This document shows positions 1 to 12,739 of a DNA stretch of 64,000 bases, piece by piece. Made by a program: the position numbers and the translations under genes. Each line of letters opens with the position of its first letter. Position 1 is the stretch's first letter. The notes under the pieces are model-generated. The model was not told where the DNA came from. It did not search any database and saw only the letters and a program-made list of their open reading frames with translations. The DNA is from an uncultured Candidatus Saccharibacteria bacterium (GTDB taxonomy: Bacteria > Patescibacteriota > Minisyncoccia > Phycocordibacterales > UBA2100), in NCBI GenBank assembly GCA_964623775.1, contig CAZUVH010000003.1, positions 79,400 to 143,399 of the forward strand, written 5' to 3'.

Positions 1-631
1 GAAAGCCGCGCTTTCGTTCAGGAACTATCAGCTCTCATGCGAGGCGTTCTCGCGCGGCGAGATCCAGATGGTCGAGTCCAACGGCGGCCTCATGCGTTGC
101 GGCTGGGTCCCGCTCCGGTATCACCGGCGCACGCCGCTTCTGGTGAAATACGCCAGATGGCAGTCGTGCATCACGCACATGCACCCGCTCTCGCAGGCGG
201 CATGTATTGCGTACTCAGTGCTCGTATCGCAGGTTCTCGACGGACTCCCGGTACCGGTGGCATGGGAAGCGACGAAGGAAGTCCTTCGTAAACCCGTCTA
301 TGCCAAGATCCCCGGGCTCGAGACGATCCTGAGTGTGAAGACCGAGAGACCGACGGACGCTGAGATCTGGCCGAACACCGGCGCCGCCGTACTTTCCTTC
401 CGAGTCGCGCTTTGGGCATCGCTCACAGCTACGGATTTTCGGGATGGAATTACAAAGTGCACCGTCGTCGGCGGCGACACTGATACCTACGCGGCCATCG
501 CGGGGGGAATTCTCGGAGCGCGTTTTGGCGTGCAGGGAATCCCTGAAGACTGGCTGAACGGGCTGCAGGGTCGCCAGGTTGTCGAGAGACTCGTTCGAAA
601 GGTCTACAAGATCACTCATCCTCTCTCCTAA
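1..631 (+). CDS. ADP-ribosylglycohydrolase family protein (C-terminal part; 5' end lies outside window)
   Basis: Frame continues open from the window edge. C-terminal motif TVVGGDTDTYAAIAGGILGARFGVQGIPEDW is typical of the DraG/ADP-ribosylglycohydrolase family. Confidence 0.7.
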   Translation, partial: KAALSFRNYQLSCEAFSRGEIQMVESNGGLMRCGWVPLRYHRRTPLLVKYARWQSCITHMHPLSQAACIAYSVLVSQVLDGLPVPVAWEATKEVLRKPVYAKIPGLETILSVKTERPTDAEIWPNTGAAVLSFRVALWASLTATDFRDGITKCTVVGGDTDTYAAIAGGILGARFGVQGIPEDWLNGLQGRQVVERLVRKVYKITHPLS

Positions 632-717
632 AAGTTGAGCTGCGGCCGCGTATCGCGCGCCGCAGCCAACATCTTTTCCATAAAGCGCCCAAAGGTTGGA
701 CGCTTTTAGAAAAGTCC

Positions 718-733
718 TGCCTGCCGGCAGGCA
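718..733. promoter_or_regulatory. perfect 16-bp palindrome TGCCTGCCGGCAGGCA about 38 bp upstream of nadE start
   Basis: Read directly. Exact reverse-complement symmetry. Function unknown; could be an operator or a hairpin. Confidence 0.3.
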
Positions 734-770
734 TGGTCTTTGATATATGAAGAGAATACAGGAGAAACAC

Positions 771-2648
771 ATGCCCAAGTCCAAACTCGACTTCAAAATG
801 GCTGTCGGACAGATCGACACGACCGATGAAATAGAAGCTCGTCTCTCGAAGATGGTCGCATGCATTGACCGGGCTCGTAAGGGCGGAGCCAAGATGATCG
901 TTTTTCCGGAGATGGCAACTGCAAAAAAGTATCTGTGGGGCGACGATTGGGAATACGACTCGTTTATTCGCGAGATTACCGATGCGAACGAAAAAATTCG
1001 CGAAGCGTCAAAAGGGATTATTTGTATTTGGGGCTCGGTCCGTGCGGACTGGGATCGCATTGGCGAGGATGGCAGAGTGCGTAAGTACAATGCCGTACTC
1101 ATCGCGCAGGATGGCCATTGGGTCACCAACGGCCGTTTGAACGGTTGGATGCCCAAGACGAATCTGCCCGAGTACCGATTCTTCGACGATAAACGGCACT
1201 TCTATCCGGCGGCGAAGCTTGCTGCTGAATTGGAAGAGACACTCTTCTCGTTCCTCCGTCCGTTCCCCGTCACGATCGATGGTGAAAAGCTCTCGATCGG
1301 TCTCACGGTCTGTGAAGACATCTGGGAAGACGAATACGACGTCAAGCCGGCTCAGTGGTACGGGAAGAAAGGCGTCGACCTGCTCATCTGCGTATCTCAG
1401 TCGCCGTGGACCGTCGACAAATGGAAGGCTCGCGACAAGATGCTCCAGAGGCGCGCGAAAGACGTGATGTGCCCGATCCTTTATGTGAATTCGGTCGGCT
1501 TGCAGAACAATGCTAAGAATCTCGTCTGGTTCGACGGCGGCTCATGCTTCATGGGCGCAGATGGAAAAATGAAGTGGACGGCACCAAGCAATCGTGAAGA
1601 TCTCTCGATCTTCTTCCCATCAGCCGTCATCCAGAAGCCCAATGTGCTCCGGCACGTGGAAGGTATCAAGGAAAAATACGACGCGACGATTGCAGCGATG
1701 ATCGAATTCTACAAAGGCTACAAGCGGGTGATCATCGGCCTCTCCGGCGGCATCGACTCGGCGGTAGCGCTCGCAATGCACGTGAAGGCGCTCGGCGCTG
1801 AGCGCGTGCTCGCGGTCAATATGCCCACGAAGTTCAACTCATGGACGACGAGGTCGCTCGCTGAAAAGTGCGCGAAAAATTTCGGCGTCGAGTACAGAGT
1901 CGTCTCGGTACAAGAGAAGTTCGAAGCTTCGCTGCGACAAGTGGCAGAAGCGGGCTATTCGAATCCGAGCGATTTCGATTGTCAAAACGAACAGGCACGG
2001 CTTCGGGGCAGTACGCTCGCATTTATTGCGGCCAACGAGGCCACAAAGCTCGGCGGTCGCACGGGATTTACCTGCAACGGCAATAAGACTGAGGTCGCGC
2101 TCAACTACTTCACACTCTACGGCGACGGCGCGGGATGCTCAGCATTCCTCGCTGGCTATTGGAAAGGTGAAGTGTACGAGCTTGCTCATCACATCAACGG
2201 ACTCGCTGGACGAGATATGATTCCGCGAGGAATTATCGACATCGTGCCGTCGGCTGAACTCTCCGCGACGCAGAACGTGGACGAAGGCAAAGGTGACCCG
2301 ATCTTCTATCCGTTTCACGACAAGCTTCTCAAAGCGTTTCTTGTGCCACGATGGGATCCGGAAGTCATTATCCGACTCGCGATCCAGGGTACGCTTGAGG
2401 AAAAGCTCGGATGTGCGTCGGGTACTATCAAGAAGTATTTCCCGTCGCGTCAGCATCTCATTGTGAGTATTGAGTGGGCATGGCGCGAGTTCGCATACGC
2501 TGGTAAGCGGCATATGCTGCCGCCTGCATTCGTTACGGATCGTCGAGAGTTCGGATTTGATTACCGTCAGACGATCGACAGCGCGCACTTTACAAAACGG
2601 TACCAAGATCTTCTCTTCCAGTATTTGTTCCAACAAGTACTGGCGTAG
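771..2648 (+). CDS. nadE: glutamine-dependent NAD+ synthetase (N-terminal nitrilase/CN-hydrolase domain fused to NAD synthetase domain)
   Basis: SGGIDS P-loop (GLSGGIDSAVALAMH) in the C-terminal half. N-terminal CN-hydrolase-like region. AGGAG sits 7 nt before the ATG at 771; the in-frame ATG at 747 is an alternative start. Confidence 0.9.
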   Translation: MPKSKLDFKMAVGQIDTTDEIEARLSKMVACIDRARKGGAKMIVFPEMATAKKYLWGDDWEYDSFIREITDANEKIREASKGIICIWGSVRADWDRIGEDGRVRKYNAVLIAQDGHWVTNGRLNGWMPKTNLPEYRFFDDKRHFYPAAKLAAELEETLFSFLRPFPVTIDGEKLSIGLTVCEDIWEDEYDVKPAQWYGKKGVDLLICVSQSPWTVDKWKARDKMLQRRAKDVMCPILYVNSVGLQNNAKNLVWFDGGSCFMGADGKMKWTAPSNREDLSIFFPSAVIQKPNVLRHVEGIKEKYDATIAAMIEFYKGYKRVIIGLSGGIDSAVALAMHVKALGAERVLAVNMPTKFNSWTTRSLAEKCAKNFGVEYRVVSVQEKFEASLRQVAEAGYSNPSDFDCQNEQARLRGSTLAFIAANEATKLGGRTGFTCNGNKTEVALNYFTLYGDGAGCSAFLAGYWKGEVYELAHHINGLAGRDMIPRGIIDIVPSAELSATQNVDEGKGDPIFYPFHDKLLKAFLVPRWDPEVIIRLAIQGTLEEKLGCASGTIKKYFPSRQHLIVSIEWAWREFAYAGKRHMLPPAFVTDRREFGFDYRQTIDSAHFTKRYQDLLFQYLFQQVLA

Positions 2649-2665
2649 TTCTCTTCAATCTTTGC

Positions 2666-2691
2666 GGAGTGGTGTATTCTCACACCACTCC
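2666..2691. promoter_or_regulatory. inverted repeat GGAGTGGTGT-ATTCTC-ACACCACTCC between nadE and pncB
   Basis: 10-bp arms with no following T-run. The core GTGTAT..ACAC loosely resembles the TAGTGTA..TACACTA sites. Could be an operator variant or an RNA hairpin. Confidence 0.3.
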
Positions 2692-2759
2692 GCATCTACA
2701 TAAGGCATCTAATACATTGGGTGTCTTTAAAGAATTGTTCTTTGAGAGGAGAAGAAAAA

Positions 2760-4126
2760 TGACCGACTTCGTAGGACGCGTATTGCGACCCGAGCGACCG
2801 GATTGGATCGTCAGATCCCTGCTCGACGTCGACTTCTATAAATTCACGATGGGATATTTTATCTGGAAATTCCATCGTGGCGTTAATGTGAAATTCCGGC
2901 TCATCAATCGCAACACCGCGCTTCCGCTCGCAAAACTGGTCGATGAGAACGAGTTGCGTCATCAGCTCGATCATGTACGGACGCTCAAGTTCGGACTGAC
3001 CAATCTTTCATACTTGAGAGGTATGAGAGTCTATGGCGACGTGATGTTCTCTGAAGATTACTATGCATTTCTTGAGAATATGCGCATGACGCCGTACGTG
3101 CTCGAGAGGGTTGGCGATCAATACGAGCTCACATTCGAGGGCCCATGGGAAGTCGTCACATTTTGGGAGACGATAGCGCTTGCGATCGTTTGCGAGCTCT
3201 TGTACCGCAAGCTCATGAGCACGATGACCAAGGCGGAGCTCTCCGCGCTCTATGGTGCAGCGTTTGATCACCTTTATGAGAAACTCGCGACGCTCAAGCT
3301 CCGGTCCGGCATCAGATTTGCCGATTTCAGCCAAAGGCGACGTCACAGCTTCCTTTGGCAGCAGTCCGCGATCGAAATGGCGCAGGAAGTCATGGAGTCT
3401 CAATTCACGGGTACAAGCAATACGTGGATGGCATTCAACCGGGACTTGGTGCCTATCGGTACTAACGCACACGAGCTGCCGATGGTCATGACTGCACTCG
3501 CACCGACGGATCGCGCAAAGAAAACGGCTCAATATCAAGTATTGCGAGAGTGGGGGAAGCTCTTCCCGCACAACGCATTGCGTATCGTGCTCCCCGATAC
3601 ATACGGCAGTGCGCAGTTCTGGCGCGATATGCCGGTAGATCTAGCACACGAGGTCGCGCATACATGGCGCGGTGAGCGTGAGGATTCGGGCGATCCCGTG
3701 AAAGGCGCTCGGGCGTACGTACATTGGCTTATGTCAAAAGGTGTGAGTCATAAAGACATCAAAGCCAACAAGATCGTGATTCCATCCGATGGCCTCGACG
3801 TTGATTCAATGTATCGAATCGATCATGAACTTGACGGTCTTATTGGGCATCCGTTCGGTTGGGGTACCAACTTCGCCAACGGATTCGCAGGATGTCATCC
3901 GCGCGGAGCCGACAGGGCGATTGTGGACGGAGTGGGACTCGACCTGACGTACGATCAGCTCTTCCGCGGCCACTCGATCGTGGTGAAGGTGGAGAGCGCC
4001 AACGGCTACGGAGCTGTGAAGCTTTCTAACAACATCAAGAAAGCGACTGGTCGGCCGGAAGACATCGCTCGCTACATCAAGATCTTCGGCAGCGAAGGTC
4101 AGGTGTCGCAAGACGTATCGGTCTGA
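2760..4126 (+). CDS. pncB: nicotinate phosphoribosyltransferase
   Basis: N-terminal LLDVDFYKFTM matches the PncB LLDTD.YK.TM signature. GAGGAG RBS before the ATG at 2760. About 455 aa. Confidence 0.85.
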
Positions 4127-4140
4127 TCTTTCTTCAAAAC

Positions 4141-4181
4141 AAAAGCCCCTGGCGAATTTTCGCCAGGGGCATTCTCTTTTT
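4141..4181. terminator. bidirectional rho-independent terminator between pncB and nadM
   Basis: GCCCCTGGCG-AATTTT-CGCCAGGGGC stem flanked by an A-run on one side and a T-run on the other. Confidence 0.7.
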
Positions 4182-4183
4182 CA

Positions 4184-5107
4184 TTACTTACGCTGATTGT
4201 CCCATCGCTCGATCAGGCGCTTGACGAGCGGCTGATGCCACGGGACGAACATCGATTCCAATTCGTCTCGCTCGAACCACCGTGCTCCTTTGGCGTCGTC
4301 GCCGGGAGTGAGGGCACCATCACGATGTTTTGTCACGAAAAGGGAAGAGTAGATCTTGTCCTTTGACTTGCGGTAACGCGGATCGTCGATACGGATTCTC
4401 TTGCCGAGCTGCGTGTAGTCGTCGCTCGTGACGATATCCGGCAATTCTTCACTGCGTTCGCGCCGCGCCGCGTCTTCGTCGTTCTCGTCCTTTTCCGCGT
4501 CGACGAAACCGCCCGGTAGCGAATAAAGACCATCAAACCAACGCTTGCTTATGCCCACGACGCGCTGGCTGAGATCATTCACAATCGCGATGTCTGCCGC
4601 AGAATATGCGACCGCCGGCCGTGTCTGCTCGTGATGAATGATAGCTTCACGTGCTGTCATGTTGGCGGAATGCATGATCGATTTACGCAGATCGGTGCCG
4701 CTAACGTCCGAGACTGGTTCGATGTACTGGACAGCGTATTTCCCAGACTCTTTGTAGGCATCTAGAAAGCTCTCGCGAGAGCCGATCATCGTGACCTGCC
4801 GACTCTCGCCGTATTTTGAGCCCACGAGCTCATCGAGCCAATTGCTCCAGCGGTTGTGTGAGAACGGATGATCGCGAAGTCGCTCGATCTCGATATTCAT
4901 ATCCGGAAATCTCTCTTCCACCATCAGTCTCCGCTCTTGGAAGGTGAGGGGATCGCGGTCGGTCCGTAGTCCTCCATGATCGCCAAGCACGATCATGAGT
5001 TCGTCGCACTGCTCTTGCGCACTGCGCACGAGATGTAGGTGGCCTGGATGGAGGTCCGGGACTTGGAATCTGGCGACGATTACGCCGAGCTTTGGACGGA
5101 CAGTCAT
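4184..5107 (-). CDS. nadM: bifunctional NMN adenylyltransferase / Nudix ADP-ribose pyrophosphatase
   Basis: N-terminal cytidylyltransferase H-x-G-H motif (HPGH). C-terminal Nudix box with GG, E and REExEE-like residues. GAGGAGAAG RBS before the ATG at 5107. Start trimmed from the ORF-track start at 5185. Confidence 0.85.
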   Translation of the reverse strand: MTVRPKLGVIVARFQVPDLHPGHLHLVRSAQEQCDELMIVLGDHGGLRTDRDPLTFQERRLMVEERFPDMNIEIERLRDHPFSHNRWSNWLDELVGSKYGESRQVTMIGSRESFLDAYKESGKYAVQYIEPVSDVSGTDLRKSIMHSANMTAREAIIHHEQTRPAVAYSAADIAIVNDLSQRVVGISKRWFDGLYSLPGGFVDAEKDENDEDAARRERSEELPDIVTSDDYTQLGKRIRIDDPRYRKSKDKIYSSLFVTKHRDGALTPGDDAKGARWFERDELESMFVPWHQPLVKRLIERWDNQRK

Positions 5108-5194
5108 GACACTTCTCCTCTGTATTCGTAAAGATCTTTCTGCGGGCTGCATAATGTCACATTTCGTTTTTTTCTCAACGCACACTGCTTCTAA

Positions 5195-5213
5195 TAGTGT
5201 AGTATATACACTA
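5195..5213. promoter_or_regulatory. 19-bp palindrome TAGTGTA-GTATA-TACACTA, candidate NrtR operator upstream of nadM
   Basis: Perfect 7-bp inverted arms. Shares the TAGTGTA/TACACTA arms with the site at 7041. Lies about 88 bp upstream of the nadM start in the nadM/membrane-protein divergent region. Confidence 0.55.
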
Positions 5214-5441
5214 AGTATAGCAAGTCAACCCCGTCAGAAATAGCCCGCCCCGCAGACCCTTCAGGCGCGCCAGCGCGGGCGCGATTTCTAACGCGGTCAA
5301 ACAAAAAGACCAGGGAGTTGCTATTCGTCGGGCTTGATCACGTAACAATTTTATAGGGTGTCAATATCGACAATTTCTTTTTTTCTCATTATAGTCTCGC
5401 CTGGACTAAAGAGTTGAAACTGATCGAAAGGAGATCAAATC

Positions 5442-6236
5442 GTGGAAACATTGTTTGCTGGCGGAATTCTCGGCTTTTTTGCCGGCCTTGTCCTCTTCCT
5501 CGGGTGGTGGGCGTGGCCGCTACTGCTCCTGATGTGCGCTTTCGGAGTCTGCTTTAGCGTGGGCTTTGGCGTGTTCCCGCAGCGCAAGATTATGGCGACC
5601 ATCTTCCTCGTGCCATCAATGCTGCTTTTCTACCATCTCGTCGGCTGGGGATTGGTCGAGTTCTTCCTCAATCACTGGCGGACTTTGCTCTGGGTTATCG
5701 GCGGCCATCTCTTGATCGGCGGCGCATGGTGCATATTCGGGCGCTGGAATTTGAAGCATATGCGATTCAGCGGCAAAGCGAAGAAGGCCTTCGAGGATTT
5801 CGTAAAATCGTGGAAGAGCAAGATTTGCGAAGCGGACGATCCGAATCACTGGACGTCTGAACTTTCGCGCCTCGGGTACGCACCACCCGCCGGCGAGGGC
5901 TCGGGAAAAGAGCGATATTCCCGTGTCTCGGAAGCTGCAAAAACCAATGCAAACGATAAGCGGACAGCAGCGATTGCATTGCTCGCCAACAATGAGCTCC
6001 CGAAGGAGCTGGAAGCTCAGTGGGATGAGAATGAGTACTCTCACATGCCTCGCGCTTCTGAGCACAAGCTGGAGATTGCGTACTGGATCTTCGCTTGGCC
6101 TATCGACATTCCCGTCTGGATCGTCACTGATCTGGCCTGGGACTTTATCGAGGGTGTGATCAGATGGTTTGGCGGTGTGTTCTCGTGGGTTGCCAGCTGG
6201 CACTACAGGGATATGGATCCTCGCTACATCAAGTAA
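5442..6236 (+). CDS. hypothetical integral membrane protein
   Basis: GTG start preceded by AAGGAG. Several hydrophobic helices. No recognisable family. Confidence 0.5.
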   Translation: METLFAGGILGFFAGLVLFLGWWAWPLLLLMCAFGVCFSVGFGVFPQRKIMATIFLVPSMLLFYHLVGWGLVEFFLNHWRTLLWVIGGHLLIGGAWCIFGRWNLKHMRFSGKAKKAFEDFVKSWKSKICEADDPNHWTSELSRLGYAPPAGEGSGKERYSRVSEAAKTNANDKRTAAIALLANNELPKELEAQWDENEYSHMPRASEHKLEIAYWIFAWPIDIPVWIVTDLAWDFIEGVIRWFGGVFSWVASWHYRDMDPRYIK

Positions 6237-6245
6237 GTTCTACAA

Positions 6246-6279
6246 AGACCTCCGCTTTCGCGGAGGTCTTTTCTTTTTA
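6246..6279. terminator. bidirectional terminator
   Basis: AGACCTCCGC-TTTC-GCGGAGGTCT followed by TTTTCTTTTT. Confidence 0.65.
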
Positions 6280-6282
6280 TAT

Positions 6283-6969
6283 TTAGAGCACCTCTATTTC
6301 AGAAACTTTGTTTGAGGCGAAGCTGTAGAGCTGCGCCGGGCGGAAGCGGCCGCCACTTTTCTTGTGGGGGAGCTTTTTCAAAATCTTGAGCTTGAGAATT
6401 TTCTTGCGGAAATTGCGTTTATCGAGGTCGGTAGAGGTAAGGCACTCATACGCTTTTTCGAGATCAGTGAGCGTGAATTCGTGTGGCATGAGCTTATTGA
6501 TGAGTGTCGTGTAGTGCACGCGCGATCGCAGACGCTGAAGTGCCAAGGCGAGGATCTCGTCGTGATCGTACGCGAGGTTCTTTGCAGATTTTACCGGTAC
6601 CCACTTTGCACCATGCGAATCGCTCTGCTCTTTTTCGTCGAGCTTTTCCCACGGCACGAGCGCGAGGTAGGCGACAGCAACGACGCGTCCGCGGGGATCG
6701 CGTTCGATATGACTAAACGTATAGAGTTGTTCGATATAGATTTTCTTCGCGTCGATCCCGCTTTTTTCCTCGAGATGTCGCACGGCTGCCTGCTCGGCAG
6801 TCTCGTGGGGGAGGAGGAGCCCGCCCGGCAATCCAGGGACATTTTTAAAATGGGGTGGGCGATCGACGTTGATGAGGCGGACGTGCAGTACGCCTTCCTT
6901 GATCGTAAAGAGGGCCGTGTCTGCGGCCAATACTGCAAAGCGCAGATGCGGACTCGGGTCTTTTGCCAT
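6283..6969 (-). CDS. nrtR: NrtR-type regulator (Nudix-related transcriptional regulator of NAD metabolism)
   Basis: N-terminal Nudix-like domain plus a basic C-terminal region with winged-helix character. It sits among its classical targets: nadM, pncB, nadE, pnuC and nadR. Confidence 0.8.
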   Translation of the reverse strand: MAKDPSPHLRFAVLAADTALFTIKEGVLHVRLINVDRPPHFKNVPGLPGGLLLPHETAEQAAVRHLEEKSGIDAKKIYIEQLYTFSHIERDPRGRVVAVAYLALVPWEKLDEKEQSDSHGAKWVPVKSAKNLAYDHDEILALALQRLRSRVHYTTLINKLMPHEFTLTDLEKAYECLTSTDLDKRNFRKKILKLKILKKLPHKKSGGRFRPAQLYSFASNKVSEIEVL

Positions 6970-7040
6970 AGATGATTAATGGTAGCACTTTTGCAGTAAT
7001 TGTCAATAGTACACTTATTCACACAGTACTTGCATTTATT

Positions 7041-7066
7041 TAGTGTATGAAATACACTAAGTGTAT
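7041..7066. promoter_or_regulatory. two overlapping palindromes sharing AGTGTAT/ATACACT half-sites; candidate NrtR operator at pnuC
   Basis: TAGTGTAT-GAA-ATACACTA (7041-7059) and ATACACT-A-AGTGTAT (7052-7066) were read directly. The array overlaps the annotated pnuC ATG and the nrtR/pnuC divergent promoter region. Confidence 0.55.
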
Positions 7067-7772
7067 GAAACACATTATCTCGCGGCTCGCAGGTAGCTGG
7101 GAAGCCCACAAAGAAGGGCTCCTCGTAGCTGGTGCGATGTTCGCGGTGACCGTCGTGTATGAGACGATAACCGCACATTTTGTAGCGGATTACTCGCTTA
7201 ATATGTATGAATTCGTCGGGACGTGGTCGGGGCTCGTATGTGTATGGCTTTCACGCACACGCAATATATTGTGCTGGCCCTGGGGGATCGTGAGCTGTAT
7301 TTCGCTTGGATTCTTTTTCGCACAGATCGGTCTGCCAGGGCAACAGTGGCTCAACTGGGTGTACTTTACGGCGGTGCAATTGTGGGCGTGGCCGTACTGG
7401 GCATTTGGAGGCGAGCACTACGATGAGCTGCCGGTCACGAGGCTCTCATGGCTCGAAAGATTTCTCACTCTCGCGATGATTGCCGCCGGCACGGCTGTCG
7501 TATTCGCGCTCATCGGATACTTCTCGCCGGGATCGTTCTATCCGGTCCTCGATTCGCTCGTGGTCGCCTCGAGTGTCGTTGCACAATTCCTGCTCGGCCG
7601 CAAAAAAATCGAAAGCTGGATTCTGTGGCTCGGGCCCGTCAACATGCTCTCCATTTTCCTCTTTTTCTCGGCCGGTGCGTACACCCTGACGGCGCTTTAC
7701 ATCGCATTCTTTATACACGCGGCATTTGCGATCCGATCATGGCAGGCGGTTGAGGTAAAAACCGCATCATAG
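7047..7772 (+). CDS. pnuC: nicotinamide riboside transporter PnuC
   Basis: About 7 TM helices with a Trp-rich pattern (WPWG, WAWPYW) typical of PnuC. NAD-regulon context. Alternative start at 7065 (MKHII). Confidence 0.75.
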   Translation: MKYTKCMKHIISRLAGSWEAHKEGLLVAGAMFAVTVVYETITAHFVADYSLNMYEFVGTWSGLVCVWLSRTRNILCWPWGIVSCISLGFFFAQIGLPGQQWLNWVYFTAVQLWAWPYWAFGGEHYDELPVTRLSWLERFLTLAMIAAGTAVVFALIGYFSPGSFYPVLDSLVVASSVVAQFLLGRKKIESWILWLGPVNMLSIFLFFSAGAYTLTALYIAFFIHAAFAIRSWQAVEVKTAS

Positions 7773-7774
7773 GT

Positions 7775-8758
7775 ATGTACGGGCGCGGACTCGTCGTCGG
7801 CAAATTCTACCCACCGCATCGCGGGCACAAATATTTGATCGATGCTGCGCTCTCGCAATGCGAAAGTGTCACCGTCCTCGTTCTTTCGGAAAGTAATCAG
7901 TCGATTTCAGGAGACCTGCGATCTGCGTGGCTCAAGACGATCCACCCGACGGCTGACATACGACATATCGCGGACACTCCGATCGGCGAAGATGATTCTG
8001 CGGGGTGGGCAAAATTTACGATCGATTACCTCGGGTATGTTCCCGACGCGGTCTTCACATCTGAAGAGTATGGGCATGCATATGCACTCTTCATGGGCAC
8101 GAAGCATGTACTCGTAGACAAGGATCGTCTCGTCGTGCCGATTTCCGGTACGAAAGTGCGCTCGAATCCTCTACGACATTTTGAATTTCTCGAGCCATGT
8201 GTACGGAAGTATTTTGTGAAGCGCATTGCCATCGTGGGTGCCGAATCCACAGGCACGACGACGCTCGCAAAAGATCTGGCAGCTCACTACAAGACTGTCT
8301 GGGCCCCTGAATTCGGTCGGATGTATTCCGAAGGGAAACTATTTGCCGACAAAAATGCCGCATGGCGCAGTGAAGAGTTTGAGATCATCGCCCGTGCGCA
8401 AAATGATCTTGAAGACGCGCTCGCCGAGTCGTGCAACGGGCTCCTCATCTGTGATACCGACGCCTTTGCGACCGGTATTTGGCATGAGCGCTACATGGGG
8501 CGACGTTCTCCACGGGTGGAGCAGATCGCTGAGGCACATGTGCACGATCTCTACATCGTGACCGGTGATGAGATTCCGTTTGAGCAAGATGGCACACGCG
8601 ATGGCGAGCATATCCGGCATTGGATGCACGAAAGATTTCTCGAACGGCTAAAAGAAGATCATAAACCCCACATTATTGTTCGCGGCAATCGCGAGGTGCG
8701 CCTACAAAAGGCGATCGAGGCGATTGCGACCCGCTCTATGCACGCGACCGCTTCATGA
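7775..8758 (+). CDS. nadR: NadR-like bifunctional NMN adenylyltransferase / ribosylnicotinamide kinase (no N-terminal HTH)
   Basis: GKFYPPHRGH nucleotidyltransferase motif at the N-terminus. Walker A (GAESTGTTT) in the C-terminal kinase domain. Confidence 0.8.
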   Translation: MYGRGLVVGKFYPPHRGHKYLIDAALSQCESVTVLVLSESNQSISGDLRSAWLKTIHPTADIRHIADTPIGEDDSAGWAKFTIDYLGYVPDAVFTSEEYGHAYALFMGTKHVLVDKDRLVVPISGTKVRSNPLRHFEFLEPCVRKYFVKRIAIVGAESTGTTTLAKDLAAHYKTVWAPEFGRMYSEGKLFADKNAAWRSEEFEIIARAQNDLEDALAESCNGLLICDTDAFATGIWHERYMGRRSPRVEQIAEAHVHDLYIVTGDEIPFEQDGTRDGEHIRHWMHERFLERLKEDHKPHIIVRGNREVRLQKAIEAIATRSMHATAS

Positions 8759-8969
8759 GAAGTACACTTGACTTATGTACAATACTCATGTTGTATTGAG
8801 AGGTTGTATTGAACTCTCCGTGACTTTCAACCAACGTGCCTAGTCGCCCCCTTACTCGAAGAGCCCTGTTTCATGATCTAGCTATCGAAATAGCTATGTC
8901 AGCACACAAAACTGCATCACACAAACGACACGCAAGAGCGAGAGCATTTTCTACTTACCGAGGCAGGTA

Positions 8970-9929
8970 ATGTTGACGTTATTTGATGTGGGGGCCCGTG
9001 CCCGTGCCCGTGCCCGTGCCCGTGCCCGTGATCCCATTTTCTTGGTCAAGTGGGTGGGCACAGCTCTGCGCGCGGCGAGCATGATGACACTCCTCATTGT
9101 CGTCTATGTAGTAGGCGCACCATTTTTTGCTGTCGCAGTACTCGCGCTCTTTCTGCTCGTTCTCACGCATATGACAGTAAGGCCTATATACGAAAGTATT
9201 AACCAGACCCTCGAATCTCATAAACTTTTTGTATCAAACGTGGCTCATGAGCTTCGCGGTCCGATGTCTGTGATGCAGCTCGACGCGGAAGCTGCGCTCC
9301 ACAATATCTCGCTTGCGCAACTCTCCGATGTTAAATCTAAAGAATTAATCGGAGCAATCAATTCTGACCTGAAAGGTCTCCATCAGATGGCCAACATCAT
9401 CAAGAATCTCTCAATCCTGACCTCCCAACAGTACGGAAGTGAACAACTTGAATTCACAGAAGTAAATCTCAGTGTGCTCCTCTCACGCCTGTGCGCATTC
9501 GTTGAGAAGGAATATGCATACGACAAATCCATTCATATCAAAGCAGAGAGCAAAACTCCGGTGTACATACTGGGTAATGAATCAGCGCTCGAGCAAATGA
9601 TCATGAATCTTTTGAAGAATGCCGTGCACTACAGCGCGGATGGCACAGGCATTGTCGCAACCACTCACCAGCATGAGAGAGGGGTGTCGCTCTCGATCAG
9701 GGATCACGGATTTGGAATATCTGAATACGATTTACCGCATATACTCGATCCCTTCTATAGAGCGCGGCATTCGCGTGCCGCGACAAATACGGAGAGCGGT
9801 AGCGGGCTTGGACTAGCGATCGTCGCTGCGCTTGCCAAGCAGCACAAGGCGACCGTGACCATCGCGAGCGTGCTCAAGAAGGGTACGACAGTAACGCTTA
9901 ATTTCCCCCTAATGGCGCAAACCGCATGA
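8970..9929 (+). CDS. membrane-anchored sensor histidine kinase
   Basis: H-box HELRGPM, N-box NLLKNAVHYS and G-box GSGLGLAIV are present. Hydrophobic N-terminal segment. True start is uncertain: 8970 or the MM codons near 9076. Confidence 0.8.
   Translation: MLTLFDVGARARARARARARDPIFLVKWVGTALRAASMMTLLIVVYVVGAPFFAVAVLALFLLVLTHMTVRPIYESINQTLESHKLFVSNVAHELRGPMSVMQLDAEAALHNISLAQLSDVKSKELIGAINSDLKGLHQMANIIKNLSILTSQQYGSEQLEFTEVNLSVLLSRLCAFVEKEYAYDKSIHIKAESKTPVYILGNESALEQMIMNLLKNAVHYSADGTGIVATTHQHERGVSLSIRDHGFGISEYDLPHILDPFYRARHSRAATNTESGSGLGLAIVAALAKQHKATVTIASVLKKGTTVTLNFPLMAQTA
8994..9030 (+). repeat. hexanucleotide tandem repeat (CCCGTG)x6 encoding (Ala-Arg)6
   Basis: Read directly. Six perfect units are in frame with the HK ORF if the 8970 start is used; otherwise they fall in its 5' leader. 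Confidence 0.9.
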
Positions 9930-9933
9930 TACT

Positions 9934-10560
9934 ATGATGATACAAATGAAAAACGAAAAGGGTGTTGAGGTAAACGTCGCGGACGAGATGTGGGCGACGG
10001 CGTGGACGTACATTCGTACCGTCGTAGATACGGCGCGTGAGCCTTTTTTAATACTCAACCGCGATCTTCGAGTGGTCGCAGCCAACAGCTGCTTCTTCCG
10101 GACATTCGAGGTCAGTGAAAAAGAGACAGAAGGAAAGCTCATCTACCAGCTCGGAGATGGTCAATGGGATATTCCAAAACTGAAGAAGTTACTCGAAGAG
10201 ATCATCCCCAAAGACTCTTTTTTCAAGGATTACGAGGTGGATCATGAATTTCCCTCGATCGGGCGCAAGATCATGGTCCTCAATGCACGACAACTCTTCT
10301 ACAAGTCCGAAGCGACCAATATCGAGCCCTTGCCTCCGCTCGTACTCCTTGCGATGGAAGACGTGACCGATCGTCGGATGATCGCCGAGAAACTCGCCGA
10401 ATACGCCCAAAGGATTGAATCAAGTATCGGTCTAAAGATGCAAAATTTGGACGCTCGGGTGGCTGAGCTGACACGATTACACCAAGTCATTATCGACAGG
10501 GATGCGCAGGTGACGGCACTGACCGCTGAAATCGTGGATCTAAAAAAGAAGCTCGCGTAA
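9934..10560 (+). CDS. PAS-domain protein with C-terminal coiled coil
   Basis: PAS-like core (LILNRDLRVVAANSCFFRTF...GK). Heptad-like C-terminus. Immediately downstream of the HK. Confidence 0.6.
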   Translation: MMIQMKNEKGVEVNVADEMWATAWTYIRTVVDTAREPFLILNRDLRVVAANSCFFRTFEVSEKETEGKLIYQLGDGQWDIPKLKKLLEEIIPKDSFFKDYEVDHEFPSIGRKIMVLNARQLFYKSEATNIEPLPPLVLLAMEDVTDRRMIAEKLAEYAQRIESSIGLKMQNLDARVAELTRLHQVIIDRDAQVTALTAEIVDLKKKLA

Positions 10561-10666
10561 CATTTTACGAGAGAGTGTGCTTCAGCGCGCGCGAAGATCG
10601 CGCCGGCGAACGACTCCGTATTGAATGCGGAATGAAAAAGCCGCCCTCATCATGAAGGCGGCGAGT

Positions 10667-11239
10667 CTATTTGCAGTCAACGTCTTGCACGACGAGCGGA
10701 CGCGACCGTGCCGCCGCGATCTGCCAGTTGTCGAAATACCGCTTTGCAAAGCGCGGATCATTCTTGACGAGGTTTACGTTCTCCGCGTTTTTCTCAGCAG
10801 ATTTCGTAAAGTTGAGACTCCCAAGGACTACGTGTTTGCGGTCAATGATGAACACTTTGTTGTGAGCGATCTTCACTTTGTAATCCACAAGGACCGGAAT
10901 TCCTTCTTTCACATTGCACGATCCGGCCGGATATCGCTCCGATTCGTTGGTCTTGTCGAGGATCACGCGCACAACTATTCCGTGCTTGTTGGCGTACGAC
11001 ACAGCGTCGATGAACTCTTCGCGTGTATATCCGTAGGCCTGTACCAAGAGCTCGGATTTTGCAAGCTTGATCGCGTCGACCACGAATTTCGTGCAGTCCT
11101 CTTGCGGCTCAAAACACTCGGATAATTCGCCCGTGATGGGCGACGCCGAATGCGTGTTTTTGCCGATATGAGGTATCCAGAGACCGACTGCTATGCCGAC
11201 TACAAAAGCGGCAATAACGGACAGTACTTTCGCTCTCAT
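10667..11239 (-). CDS. phospholipase D-family (Nuc-like) nuclease/phosphodiesterase, secreted or membrane-anchored
   Basis: Single HKD motif (HNKVFIIDRKHVVLGSLNFT). N-terminal signal/anchor helix. Confidence 0.7.
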   Translation of the reverse strand: MRAKVLSVIAAFVVGIAVGLWIPHIGKNTHSASPITGELSECFEPQEDCTKFVVDAIKLAKSELLVQAYGYTREEFIDAVSYANKHGIVVRVILDKTNESERYPAGSCNVKEGIPVLVDYKVKIAHNKVFIIDRKHVVLGSLNFTKSAEKNAENVNLVKNDPRFAKRYFDNWQIAAARSRPLVVQDVDCK

Positions 11240-11407
11240 GGGCGCGATTCCTGTGTTGATTTCCGATCGATACTATACAATCTTTTGTCAAAAAAAGCAA
11301 AGAAGAATATTGACCAGTTCACTTTATTATGTTATACAAATTGTCGGATTAAACAGGTCTTTGACTCAAAGATCACACCCAATACTGAGGAAATCAGGAG
11401 AGGTACG

Positions 11408-12739
11408 ATGCGCATATCGCAGCAACAAGGGGACTTGATGGCAAAAGCCATCCTCATCCTTATCGGTGCTGTTGTCCTCGCGGACATCGGCTCTCTCGCA
11501 TACGTTGTTGCTCACGGCCTGGTAGGAAAGCTTTGGAAGGTGGTTTGGAGCAATTTCGAGTTTCCTATCGTTCTCGGGATCCTTGCACTCATCGGTTTTT
11601 ACTGGAAGTTCAAGTATCCGGAAGACTTCACGTTTGGCGAGCTGGCGGTCTATATCGTCGCCTTGCCGATCGTTGCGTTTCCGTTTGCTGCCATATTCTA
11701 CTTCTTCGCGACAGATCTACACGACAGGGAGATTTGGAATGGCCGCGTACAAGTGGCCACGTACGAGGAGAAGTGGACAGAATTAGTCACGTATACCGAG
11801 CAGGAGTGCACAGGAAGCGGGAAAGACCAGGTGTGCACGACTGTCACCAAGACACGGCATGATTATCATCCACCAAAATGGTACATCACGACCAGCAACG
11901 ATGAGACCATCAGCGTCTCGTCGCACGAGTATAGGGCGAGTGCCGAACGTTTTGGTAGCGAGGTGTTTAAGCGTCTCTATCGCGCAAATCAGGTAAGCTT
12001 TGGCGACGGTAATATGTACTATGCGGAATGGAAAGGGCAATCGACAACGATTATCCCGACCGCAGTGGAGCATCCGTTCGTCAACTACCTGCGTGCCTCC
12101 AATTCCATCACCAAGATCAACGGTGTTGCCGCTTCGTACAAAGAGCTGCTGTTGCCATATCCTCGCGTGCATGGAGGACGTTATGGCTATATCGAGATCG
12201 ATCGCGTCCTTTCCTCTGGAGTGAGTATTCCGGAAGACTGGAGGCGGAAGGTGAGTGACGGCCTCAGTGTCGCGCTTACGACACTCGGCTCTCAAAAGCA
12301 GGTCAATATCCTTGTATATGTGACGAGCGCAGACATCAACTTCTTCTACGCGCTCAAGGAACACTGGACCGACGGTAAGAAAAACGACGTCATCGTCGTT
12401 GTTGGTTCGCGTGACGGCAGTTCGATCGATTGGGTACAGGTGCAAGCCTGGACCAAGATCGAATTGTTCAAGATGCAGCTCTCGGATTCCATCCGTGAGC
12501 TGAAGACTCTCAGCGGCAACGCAGAGAGGTTTGTGGAGACGATCGTCACGCATGTGGCACGGGCTCCCGACACGGGCGGTTTCCAGCGAATGCCGATGGC
12601 AGAGCTGGAATATCTGCTCGTGGAAATCAAGCTGCCGTGGTGGGCCTCGATCCTTGTGGTCGTGCTCAACATGGTGGTTGTCACTCCCATCATCTTTCTA
12701 CTCTTGAACAACTCGCTGCGCCGCCAAAGGAGGGCGTAA
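11408..12739 (+). CDS. hypothetical membrane protein (N-terminal 4 TM, soluble middle, C-terminal TM)
   Basis: GGAGAGG RBS before the ATG at 11408. The upstream part of the long ORF-track frame is probably not translated. No family recognised. Confidence 0.5.
   Translation: MRISQQQGDLMAKAILILIGAVVLADIGSLAYVVAHGLVGKLWKVVWSNFEFPIVLGILALIGFYWKFKYPEDFTFGELAVYIVALPIVAFPFAAIFYFFATDLHDREIWNGRVQVATYEEKWTELVTYTEQECTGSGKDQVCTTVTKTRHDYHPPKWYITTSNDETISVSSHEYRASAERFGSEVFKRLYRANQVSFGDGNMYYAEWKGQSTTIIPTAVEHPFVNYLRASNSITKINGVAASYKELLLPYPRVHGGRYGYIEIDRVLSSGVSIPEDWRRKVSDGLSVALTTLGSQKQVNILVYVTSADINFFYALKEHWTDGKKNDVIVVVGSRDGSSIDWVQVQAWTKIELFKMQLSDSIRELKTLSGNAERFVETIVTHVARAPDTGGFQRMPMAELEYLLVEIKLPWWASILVVVLNMVVVTPIIFLLLNNSLRRQRRA

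Follow-up and report, generated by a model that had tools for sequence, protein, structure and literature searches.

Is the inverted repeat that precedes nadM in the nicotinamide adenine dinucleotide (NAD) locus of a Candidatus Saccharibacteria bacterium the operator of the regulator encoded in the same locus, and which signal would such a regulator transmit? The locus lies in a stretch of 64,000 nucleotides from an uncultured member of the UBA2100 lineage (GenBank assembly GCA_964623775.1, contig CAZUVH010000003.1, positions 79,400 to 143,399 of the forward strand), which is called the window hereafter and to which all coordinates refer. The candidate regulator is NrtR, a protein of 228 residues with NUDIX and NrtR_WHD domains encoded at 6283-6969 on the minus strand, between the nadM-like gene (4184-5107, minus strand) and pnuC (7065-7772, plus strand). 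An earlier note, whose gene assignments were right in substance (NadM-like with a Nudix domain, NUDIX with NrtR_WHD, and PnuC), had read the repeat as the operator of this local Nudix-family regulator, and every computational test reported below supports that reading (the GT-N7-AC core, the conservation, the matrix, the metagenome scan and the recognition helix). On the sequence evidence, four sites, namely the repeat before nadM (site 1) and three companions, are with high probability the operators of the NrtR encoded at 6283-6969.

Site 1 is found at 5195-5213, where the earlier note had placed it, and reads TAGTGTA-GTATA-TACACTA (TAGTGTAGTATATACACTA). Its arms are 100% complementary over 7 nt and the GTATA between them is non-symmetric; the site is therefore not the perfect 19-bp palindrome that had been described, but a pair of 7-nt arms around a 5-nt non-symmetric spacer. 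It is located in the nadM promoter, 88 nt upstream of the nadM ATG, over the predicted -10 hexamer. Site 2, whose 19-mer TAGTGTATGAAATACACTA lies at 7041-7059 in the nrtR/pnuC region, likewise at the position claimed, has the arms TAGTGTA/TACACTA in common with site 1, as had been noticed. It forms a perfect 21-bp palindrome at 7040-7060 (TTAGTGTAT-GAA-ATACACTAA, with 9-nt arms), 5-24 nt upstream of the pnuC ATG at 7065, and is conserved in the relative locus L046. In the 19-mer of either site, positions 5-6 are GT and positions 14-15 are AC, which corresponds to the core GT-N7-AC published for NrtR operators, which have a 21-bp palindromic symmetry (Rodionov et al. 2008, PMC2330246).

The two remaining sites are weaker and had been overlooked. 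Site 2b (AAGTGTATGAAACACATTA, 7059-7077) overlaps the pnuC start codon, and the other one (AAGTGTACTATTGACAATT, on the minus strand at 6998-7016) holds the -35 hexamer TTGACA of nrtR and is a candidate autoregulation site. Site 2b is a tandem copy of site 2, as the stretches 7042-7059 and 7060-7077 (AGTGTATGAAATACACTA and AGTGTATGAAACACATTA) form an 18-nt direct repeat with 89% identity. This duplication has copied the operator together with ATG AAA, and pnuC therefore has two in-frame starts, 7047 and 7065; the alignment with L046 and L056 favours ATG 7065 over the first ATG of the open reading frame (ORF), which is open from 7047.

The pattern TAGTGTA-N(3-7)-TACACTA has two exact sites in the window and no match in 100 dinucleotide-preserving shuffles of it. 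A 21-bp matrix was trained on sites of other genomes only (loci L001-L011), of which the weakest scores 14.1 bits. In the 64-kb window this matrix ranks the four sites of the NAD locus first, with 28.6 bits for site 2, 28.4 bits for site 1 (as the 21-mer 5194-5214), 19.2 bits for the site at 6998-7016 and 15.1 bits for site 2b, and the next-best match (11.0 bits) falls under the training minimum. Within the 64 kb, this matrix picks out the NAD locus alone. A further candidate, GGGTGTCAATATCGACAAT, at about 5350-5375 in the promoter of the gene for a 264-residue membrane protein, was rejected: its spacing is GT-N8-AC, one base off, and it is absent from the top list of the matrix.

The NrtR protein of the window consists of an N-terminal Nudix domain (NUDIX PF00293, 1.7e-12, 48 bits for a cut-off of 21.1) and a C-terminal winged helix (NrtR_WHD PF21906, 9.3e-21, 74.2 bits for a cut-off of 27). 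It aligns over its full length with BtAraR and SoNrtR, which are its best relatives of solved structure (4e-27 and 1.1e-20, respectively). Its closest relatives are encoded in genome bins of the Patescibacteria (Candidate Phyla Radiation, CPR), the best being a Candidatus Kaiserbacteria bin with 62% identity. The Nudix box reads G-x5-E-x7-R-H-L-x-E-K-x-G-I, with the RE glutamate replaced by histidine and the second EE glutamate by lysine. It is degenerate, as in the non-catalytic NrtRs, and the protein is predicted to be a sensor and not a hydrolase.

The recognition helix DKRNFRK (residues 183-189) is identical to D178-K184 of BtAraR and nearly invariant among 22 NrtR-family proteins adjoining this motif. 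In the crystal of BtAraR with DNA, Lys179, Arg180, Asn181 and Lys184 define the GTGT sequence and Arg180 intercalates (PMC4666351). On the ligand side, K69 and R93 of the window protein align with K76 and R98 of SoNrtR, which contact ADP-ribose, and BtAraR has Leu and Gly at these places. Relatives linked to NAD genes keep the equivalents of K69 and R93, and the two loci with sugar operons, L010 and L011, have lost them.

The motif is not confined to the window. Eleven loci (L001-L011) were recovered through the NrtR protein alone, and together with the window (188.5 kb in total) they hold 20 sites at no more than 2 mismatches, for 0.45 expected. G5, T6, A14 and C15 are invariant in all 20 sites, the sites themselves having been selected at no more than 2 mismatches. 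The motif precedes nadM in four loci (L001, L002, L003 and L004), NAD kinase in L002 and L004, pnuC in L007, a NAPRTase-family gene in L008, and nrtR itself in L005 and L009, with weaker 3-mismatch sites before nrtR in L001 and L003. When the regions upstream of nadM from L001, L046 and the window are aligned, no block other than the operator is conserved. The site at 6998-7016 has the form AGTGTA-N4-TTGACAAT, in which the operator overlaps the -35. This form recurs before nrtR (L001 and L026) and, in L002, L004 and L008, before nadM, NAD kinase or pncB-type genes; a second operator stands exactly 38 bp downstream in L002, L004 and L056.

The motif was also looked for without the protein, by scanning metagenome contigs for the bare 14-base pattern, which gave at least 120 stretches with an exact match (623 kb, a sample). 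An NrtR-family protein is encoded in about 10% of them (12 of 120 among the matches listed), for a chance expectation of about 0.2 NrtR-family genes in 120 random 5-kb pieces, a rough estimate that assumes about one gene per 3 Mb. In 11 of those 12, again among the matches listed, the exact site is intergenic and near nrtR or near pnuC-nadR, nadM, nadA, a nadD-like gene or a tryptophan dioxygenase operon. In two further stretches of the same set, the site immediately precedes nadE or a NAPRTase gene.

Several observations were made on the genes behind these sites in other genomes. In the Patescibacteria relatives L002 (site 6740-6758, gene 6813-8213) and L004 (site 6756-6774, gene 6795-7619), the motif lies directly before the NAD kinase gene, the product in L002 being a fusion with a GNAT acetyltransferase domain; the 2008 regulon table (PMC2330246) does not list NAD kinase as an NrtR target. 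Proteins without a Pfam match are encoded directly behind perfect sites or in the nrtR operon in L001 (651-1835, minus strand), L005 (6750-7685 and 7729-8892, plus strand) and L128 (4412-5626, plus strand). L001_394 and L005_387 are 42% identical (3e-75), L128_404 and L005_311 are weakly related, and no homologue of these proteins was found in the window; they may be the uncharacterised nrtX-nrtY targets of Rodionov et al. (2008). The same operator and the DKRNFRK helix also occur with regulators of other pathways (sites L010 5781-5799, L011 5741-5759 and L039 323-341). L010 and L011 are Bacteroidales bins in which the regulator heads operons for a sugar transporter and a GH94 phosphorylase, and L039 is an unclassified metagenome contig with an operon for tryptophan 2,3-dioxygenase and an aldehyde dehydrogenase. 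The Nudix pockets of these three regulators differ from that of the window protein.

The sites of the window fall on predicted core promoter elements. The nadM promoter is predicted at 5201-5228 on the minus strand, with the -35 hexamer TTGACT (5228-5223), a 16-nt spacer and the -10 hexamer TATACT (5206-5201), which together give 10 of 12 consensus matches. This -10 hexamer lies within site 1 and is made of the operator spacer and the first base of one arm. The nadM layout of L001 matches that of the window (TTGACA-16-TAAACT), and L046 is a looser match, with a -35-like TTGACA upstream of a weaker operator of spacer TATAA and 17 nt to TATATA or 19 nt to TATAAT. The nrtR promoter is predicted at 7006-6979 on the minus strand (TTGACA, 7006-7001, then 16 nt and TACCAT, 6984-6979, with an upstream TG), its -35 being within the site at 6998-7016. 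For pnuC, a promoter can be read as TTGCAT(7030)-17-TACACT(7053-7058), in which case the transcription start would fall near ATG 7065. The predicted -10 of nrtR is separated from the ATG by 9 nt, and the candidate -10 of pnuC from ATG 7065 by 6 nt; no Shine-Dalgarno sequence precedes either start, so the two transcripts may have little or no leader. Unlike these two genes, nadM has GAGGAG before ATG 5107.

These features suggest the following mechanism. A dimer of NrtR would read the two GTGT half-sites of TTAGTGTA-N5-TACACTAA through the winged-helix recognition helix DKRNFRK, and on sites 2 and 2b it would lie over the pnuC start codon and the nucleotides directly before it. Repression would extend to nadM, to pnuC-nadR and to nrtR itself. 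Since the sites lie on the nadM -10, the nrtR -35 and the pnuC start region, bound NrtR would block RNA polymerase, and repression by promoter occlusion is the mode of action that we predict as probable. The ligand of the catalytically degenerate Nudix domain would be a nucleotide derived from NAD, most likely ADP-ribose; once bound to it, NrtR would leave the DNA and NAD salvage would be turned on. ADP-ribose is somewhat favoured as the effector from the residues of the pocket, with less assurance than the occlusion itself. We infer repression rather than activation.

A number of points weigh against this reading of the locus, or against parts of it. The promoter positions are matches of a consensus scan only, and the pnuC promoter reading is below the threshold of the scanner. 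The motif scan covers 64 kb of the genome only. No operator was found for nadE-pncB in the window scan at no more than 3 mismatches or at 12 bits or more; the two genes stand in the same locus, so the regulon is partial and they are not predicted targets here. The centres of sites 2 and 2b are 18 bp apart and BtAraR covers 25 bp, so the two sites may not be occupied together. In the protein, the equivalent of SoNrtR Arg41 is Val35, from which it follows that the effector could differ from ADP-ribose, and the match to the NCBIfam equivalog NF050029 ('ADPR responsive transcriptional repressor') reaches 144.1 bits for a cut-off of 400. The window protein is a member of the NrtR family and not an equivalog of that curated model.

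Four other explanations of the repeats have to be weighed, among which we consider it very improbable that they act as RNA hairpins in the transcripts (which might, for instance, mask the pnuC start or stabilise the leader of nadM) instead of as DNA bound by a protein. The repeats are foldable, site 1 at -6.1 to -7.0 kcal/mol and site 2, flanks included, at -10.4 kcal/mol (z-scores from -2 to -4), and sites 2 and 2b overlap both candidate start codons of pnuC. These stems are nevertheless weak and AT-rich, they have no Rfam match, and the motif occupies -35 and -10 positions and places upstream of the predicted transcription starts, where it would not be transcribed. The arm sequences are conserved across genomes in which NrtR is 35-62% identical, without compensatory changes and with a variable loop or spacer, and the co-occurrence with NrtR-family genes in the pattern-only scan would be unexpected for a generic hairpin. 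This co-occurrence bears in the same way on the proposal that the sites belong to another transcription factor encoded elsewhere, with nrtR close by coincidence. Only 64 kb of the genome is visible and the link between NrtR and the DNA is a predicted one, but the motif accompanies NrtR-family genes both in the 11 loci recovered through the protein and in 12 of 120 stretches recovered by the pattern (among the matches listed) from unrelated samples, and a relative with an identical recognition helix has been crystallised on the same GTGT half-site. The nadR-like protein of the window has no helix-turn-helix (HTH) domain, its match to the NadR model beginning at profile position 66, and the enterobacterial NadR box TGTTTA-N6-TAAACA differs from the motif. 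We give this proposal as little credence as the hairpins.

Chance resemblance, or mere AT-rich promoter sequence, is still further from being credible. The spacer and one arm do overlap the -10-like hexamers TATACT and TACACT, and a part of the conservation could be promoter signal; yet the most conserved positions are the G and C of the arms, which are not promoter consensus, and the absence of matches in 100 shuffles, the 20 sites for 0.45 expected in the related loci and the top ranking of the four NAD-locus sites by a matrix trained on other genomes effectively refute it. What keeps a real, if minor, share of probability is a variant of the NrtR operator reading and not its opposite: the sites would be NrtR operators, but the ligand would be other than ADP-ribose (NAD or a sugar phosphate, for instance) or NrtR would be a partial activator. 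The closest solved relative, BtAraR, is a sugar sensor, NdnR of C. glutamicum is reported to be NAD-responsive (PMC4666351, introduction), and Val35 and the missed NCBIfam cut-off point the same way. On the other side, K69 and R93, whose SoNrtR counterparts K76 and R98 contact the phosphate and ribose of ADP-ribose, are kept here and replaced in the sugar-linked relatives, the regulon consists of NAD salvage genes, and the covering of -10 or -35 hexamers by the operators argues for repression. Binding of NrtR to the four sites, with ADP-ribose as the somewhat preferred ligand, is the explanation that we retain.

The system proposed for the window resembles the NrtR regulons of Rodionov et al. 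(2008) in its main features. These also combine a Nudix domain having a degenerate Nudix box with a winged helix, an operator of about 21 bp that is palindromic with GT-N7-AC, tandem sites at some promoters, and sites both before nadM and between the divergent nrtR and pnuC-nadR. The arrangement of nrtR<#>pnuC-nadR with #nadM has already been listed for Hahella chejuensis (PMC2330246). The differences are the host lineage (Patescibacteria/CPR relatives), the arm variant TTAGTGTA/TACACTAA, the absence of a site at nadE-pncB here and the NAD kinase target in relatives. In the literature searched, no report linking NrtR with Patescibacteria or CPR was found.

BtAraR (BT0354; Chang et al. 2015, PMC4666351; PDB 5BS6 / 5DD4 group) is the closest model for the DNA side. 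DKRNFRK is identical, the wing arginine is kept, tandem sites are present, and the validated sites AGAGTGTATTTGATACACCAA and AAAGTGTAAAAAAGACACTTA have the core AGTGTA-N5-(T/G)ACAC in common with the motif of the window. The predicted operator is an AraR-type variant of the NrtR motif. BtAraR differs in that it is an L-arabinose sensor controlling sugar utilisation, with a pocket filled by Leu67, Gly89 and Phe36, whereas the window protein has Lys69 and Arg93, as in SoNrtR, and Arg37, and stands among NAD genes. The wing Lys204 of BtAraR is Phe in the window protein, and the tandem spacing is 18 bp here for 24 bp in Bacteroides. By its pocket (Lys69/Arg93/Arg37) and its NAD-gene neighbours, the window protein is not an AraR, although it looks AraR-like on DNA.

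SoNrtR (SO1979; PDB 3GZ5 / 3GZ6 / 3GZ8) has the same fold and domain order, represses an NAD salvage operon through tandem sites and is freed from DNA by ADP-ribose, and the equivalents of its Lys76 and Arg98 are conserved in the window protein. Its recognition helix is GKSFRRR in place of DKRNFRK, and its Arg41 and Asn43 correspond to Val35 and Arg37 of the window protein. Enterobacterial NadR and the NAD+ riboswitches also control pnuC and genes of NAD salvage or biosynthesis. Enterobacterial NadR carries an N-terminal HTH and recognises the 18-bp box TGTTTA-N6-TAAACA (PMC2330246), whereas the nadR-like protein here lacks the HTH and the motif is different. A search of positions 1-12000 with the Rfam models (cmscan, E of at most 1) found no riboswitch or other family at 5100-5450 or 6970-7080. 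What the sequences indicate to be new here is the lineage, the pairing of an AraR-type DNA code with a pocket of the ADP-ribose type, and NAD kinase as a predicted target in relatives.

The other genes of the locus are as follows. On the plus strand, nadE (ORF 747-2648) has its probable start at ATG 772, which is preceded by AGGAGA, and is followed at 2669-4126 by a gene for a pncB-type nicotinate phosphoribosyltransferase. A nadV label for this NAPRTase-family gene of 485 codons was rejected, as NCBIfam groups it with PncB (1e-99). The nadM-like gene codes for a nicotinamide mononucleotide (NMN) adenylyltransferase with a Nudix domain. Public gene calls give it either 307 residues (ATG 5107) or 322 residues (ATG 5152), and ATG 5107 is probably right because of the GAGGAG that precedes it and of the alignment of homologues. 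The nadR-like gene (7775-8758, plus strand), which codes for an NMN adenylyltransferase with a ribosylnicotinamide kinase, forms with pnuC a putative NrtR-controlled operon (7065-8758, plus strand).

Between nadM and nrtR lies the gene of the 264-residue membrane protein (5442-6236, plus strand), which has four hydrophobic segments within its first 100 residues and its own predicted promoter TCGACA-17-TATAGT at 5367-5395. Neither Pfam nor NCBIfam gave a match for the protein, which stands as a singleton cluster, and no homology was detected with the protein of the 204-codon ORF found in the same position in L046. The 264-residue protein may serve to transport a precursor; the scan gave no operator for its gene. 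Between this gene and nrtR, which are convergent, a 12-bp G+C-rich stem (AAAGACCTCCGC-TTTC-GCGGAGGTCTTT, 6244-6271), flanked on either side by A/T runs, resembles an intrinsic terminator that works in both directions. Directly upstream of the nadM -35, a G+C-rich imperfect hairpin at 5230-5296 folds with -37.8 kcal/mol on the minus strand (z -3.2) and -25.5 kcal/mol on the plus strand; it has no T-run behind it and no Rfam family match.

At the left end of the window, just upstream of nadE, the ORF 68-631 (plus strand), which probably extends past the end, has a match to the C-terminal part of DraG-type ADP-ribosylglycohydrolases (2.3e-17) that spans profile positions 121-279 of 287. The product of DraG-type enzymes is free ADP-ribose, the usual effector of NrtR. 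Linkage of nrtR with draG has been reported in Streptomyces (PMC2330246). After a terminator-like hairpin behind this ORF, a perfect 14-bp palindrome (GCCTGCCGGCAGGC) is found at 719-732, some 40 nt before the probable start of nadE. Another regulator might use it to control nadE-pncB, the two genes without an NrtR site.

Taken as a whole, the locus is, as read from its sequence, very probably one more ordinary case of a regulatory system already known. It is a small one, with a protein of 228 residues and 21-bp duplexes, in which the regulator, the operator, the target promoters and a structure-based rationale for recognition can all be named from sequence, in a group (CPR/Patescibacteria) whose transcriptional regulation is almost unstudied because few members are cultured. 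A broader proposal is made tentatively, with slightly more doubt than confidence: the loci from Patescibacteria/CPR, Bacteroidales bins and unclassified metagenome contigs may belong to one cross-phylum NrtR branch in which the DNA code, DKRNFRK with TTAGTGTA-N5-TACACTAA, is fixed and the Nudix pocket is switched between an ADP-ribose-like nucleotide and sugars. In the salvage-dependent CPR, the supply of NAD(P) would be under one master switch, this regulator, acting on pnuC-nadR, nadM, pncB-type genes and also, in relatives, on NAD kinase, with the -10 built into the operator spacer. Such a branch, if true, would be contrary to the published generalisation that the DNA-contact residues and motifs of NrtR are not conserved between lineages (PMC4666351, introduction). 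For the NrtR field, the finding would add a lineage and a clear example of DNA specificity that is kept while effector specificity changes, and the current understanding stands. For the organisms, it points to the NAD-precursor routes that are apparently regulated in reduced genomes, namely nicotinamide riboside uptake by PnuC and NadR, NadM, and, in relatives, NAD kinase.

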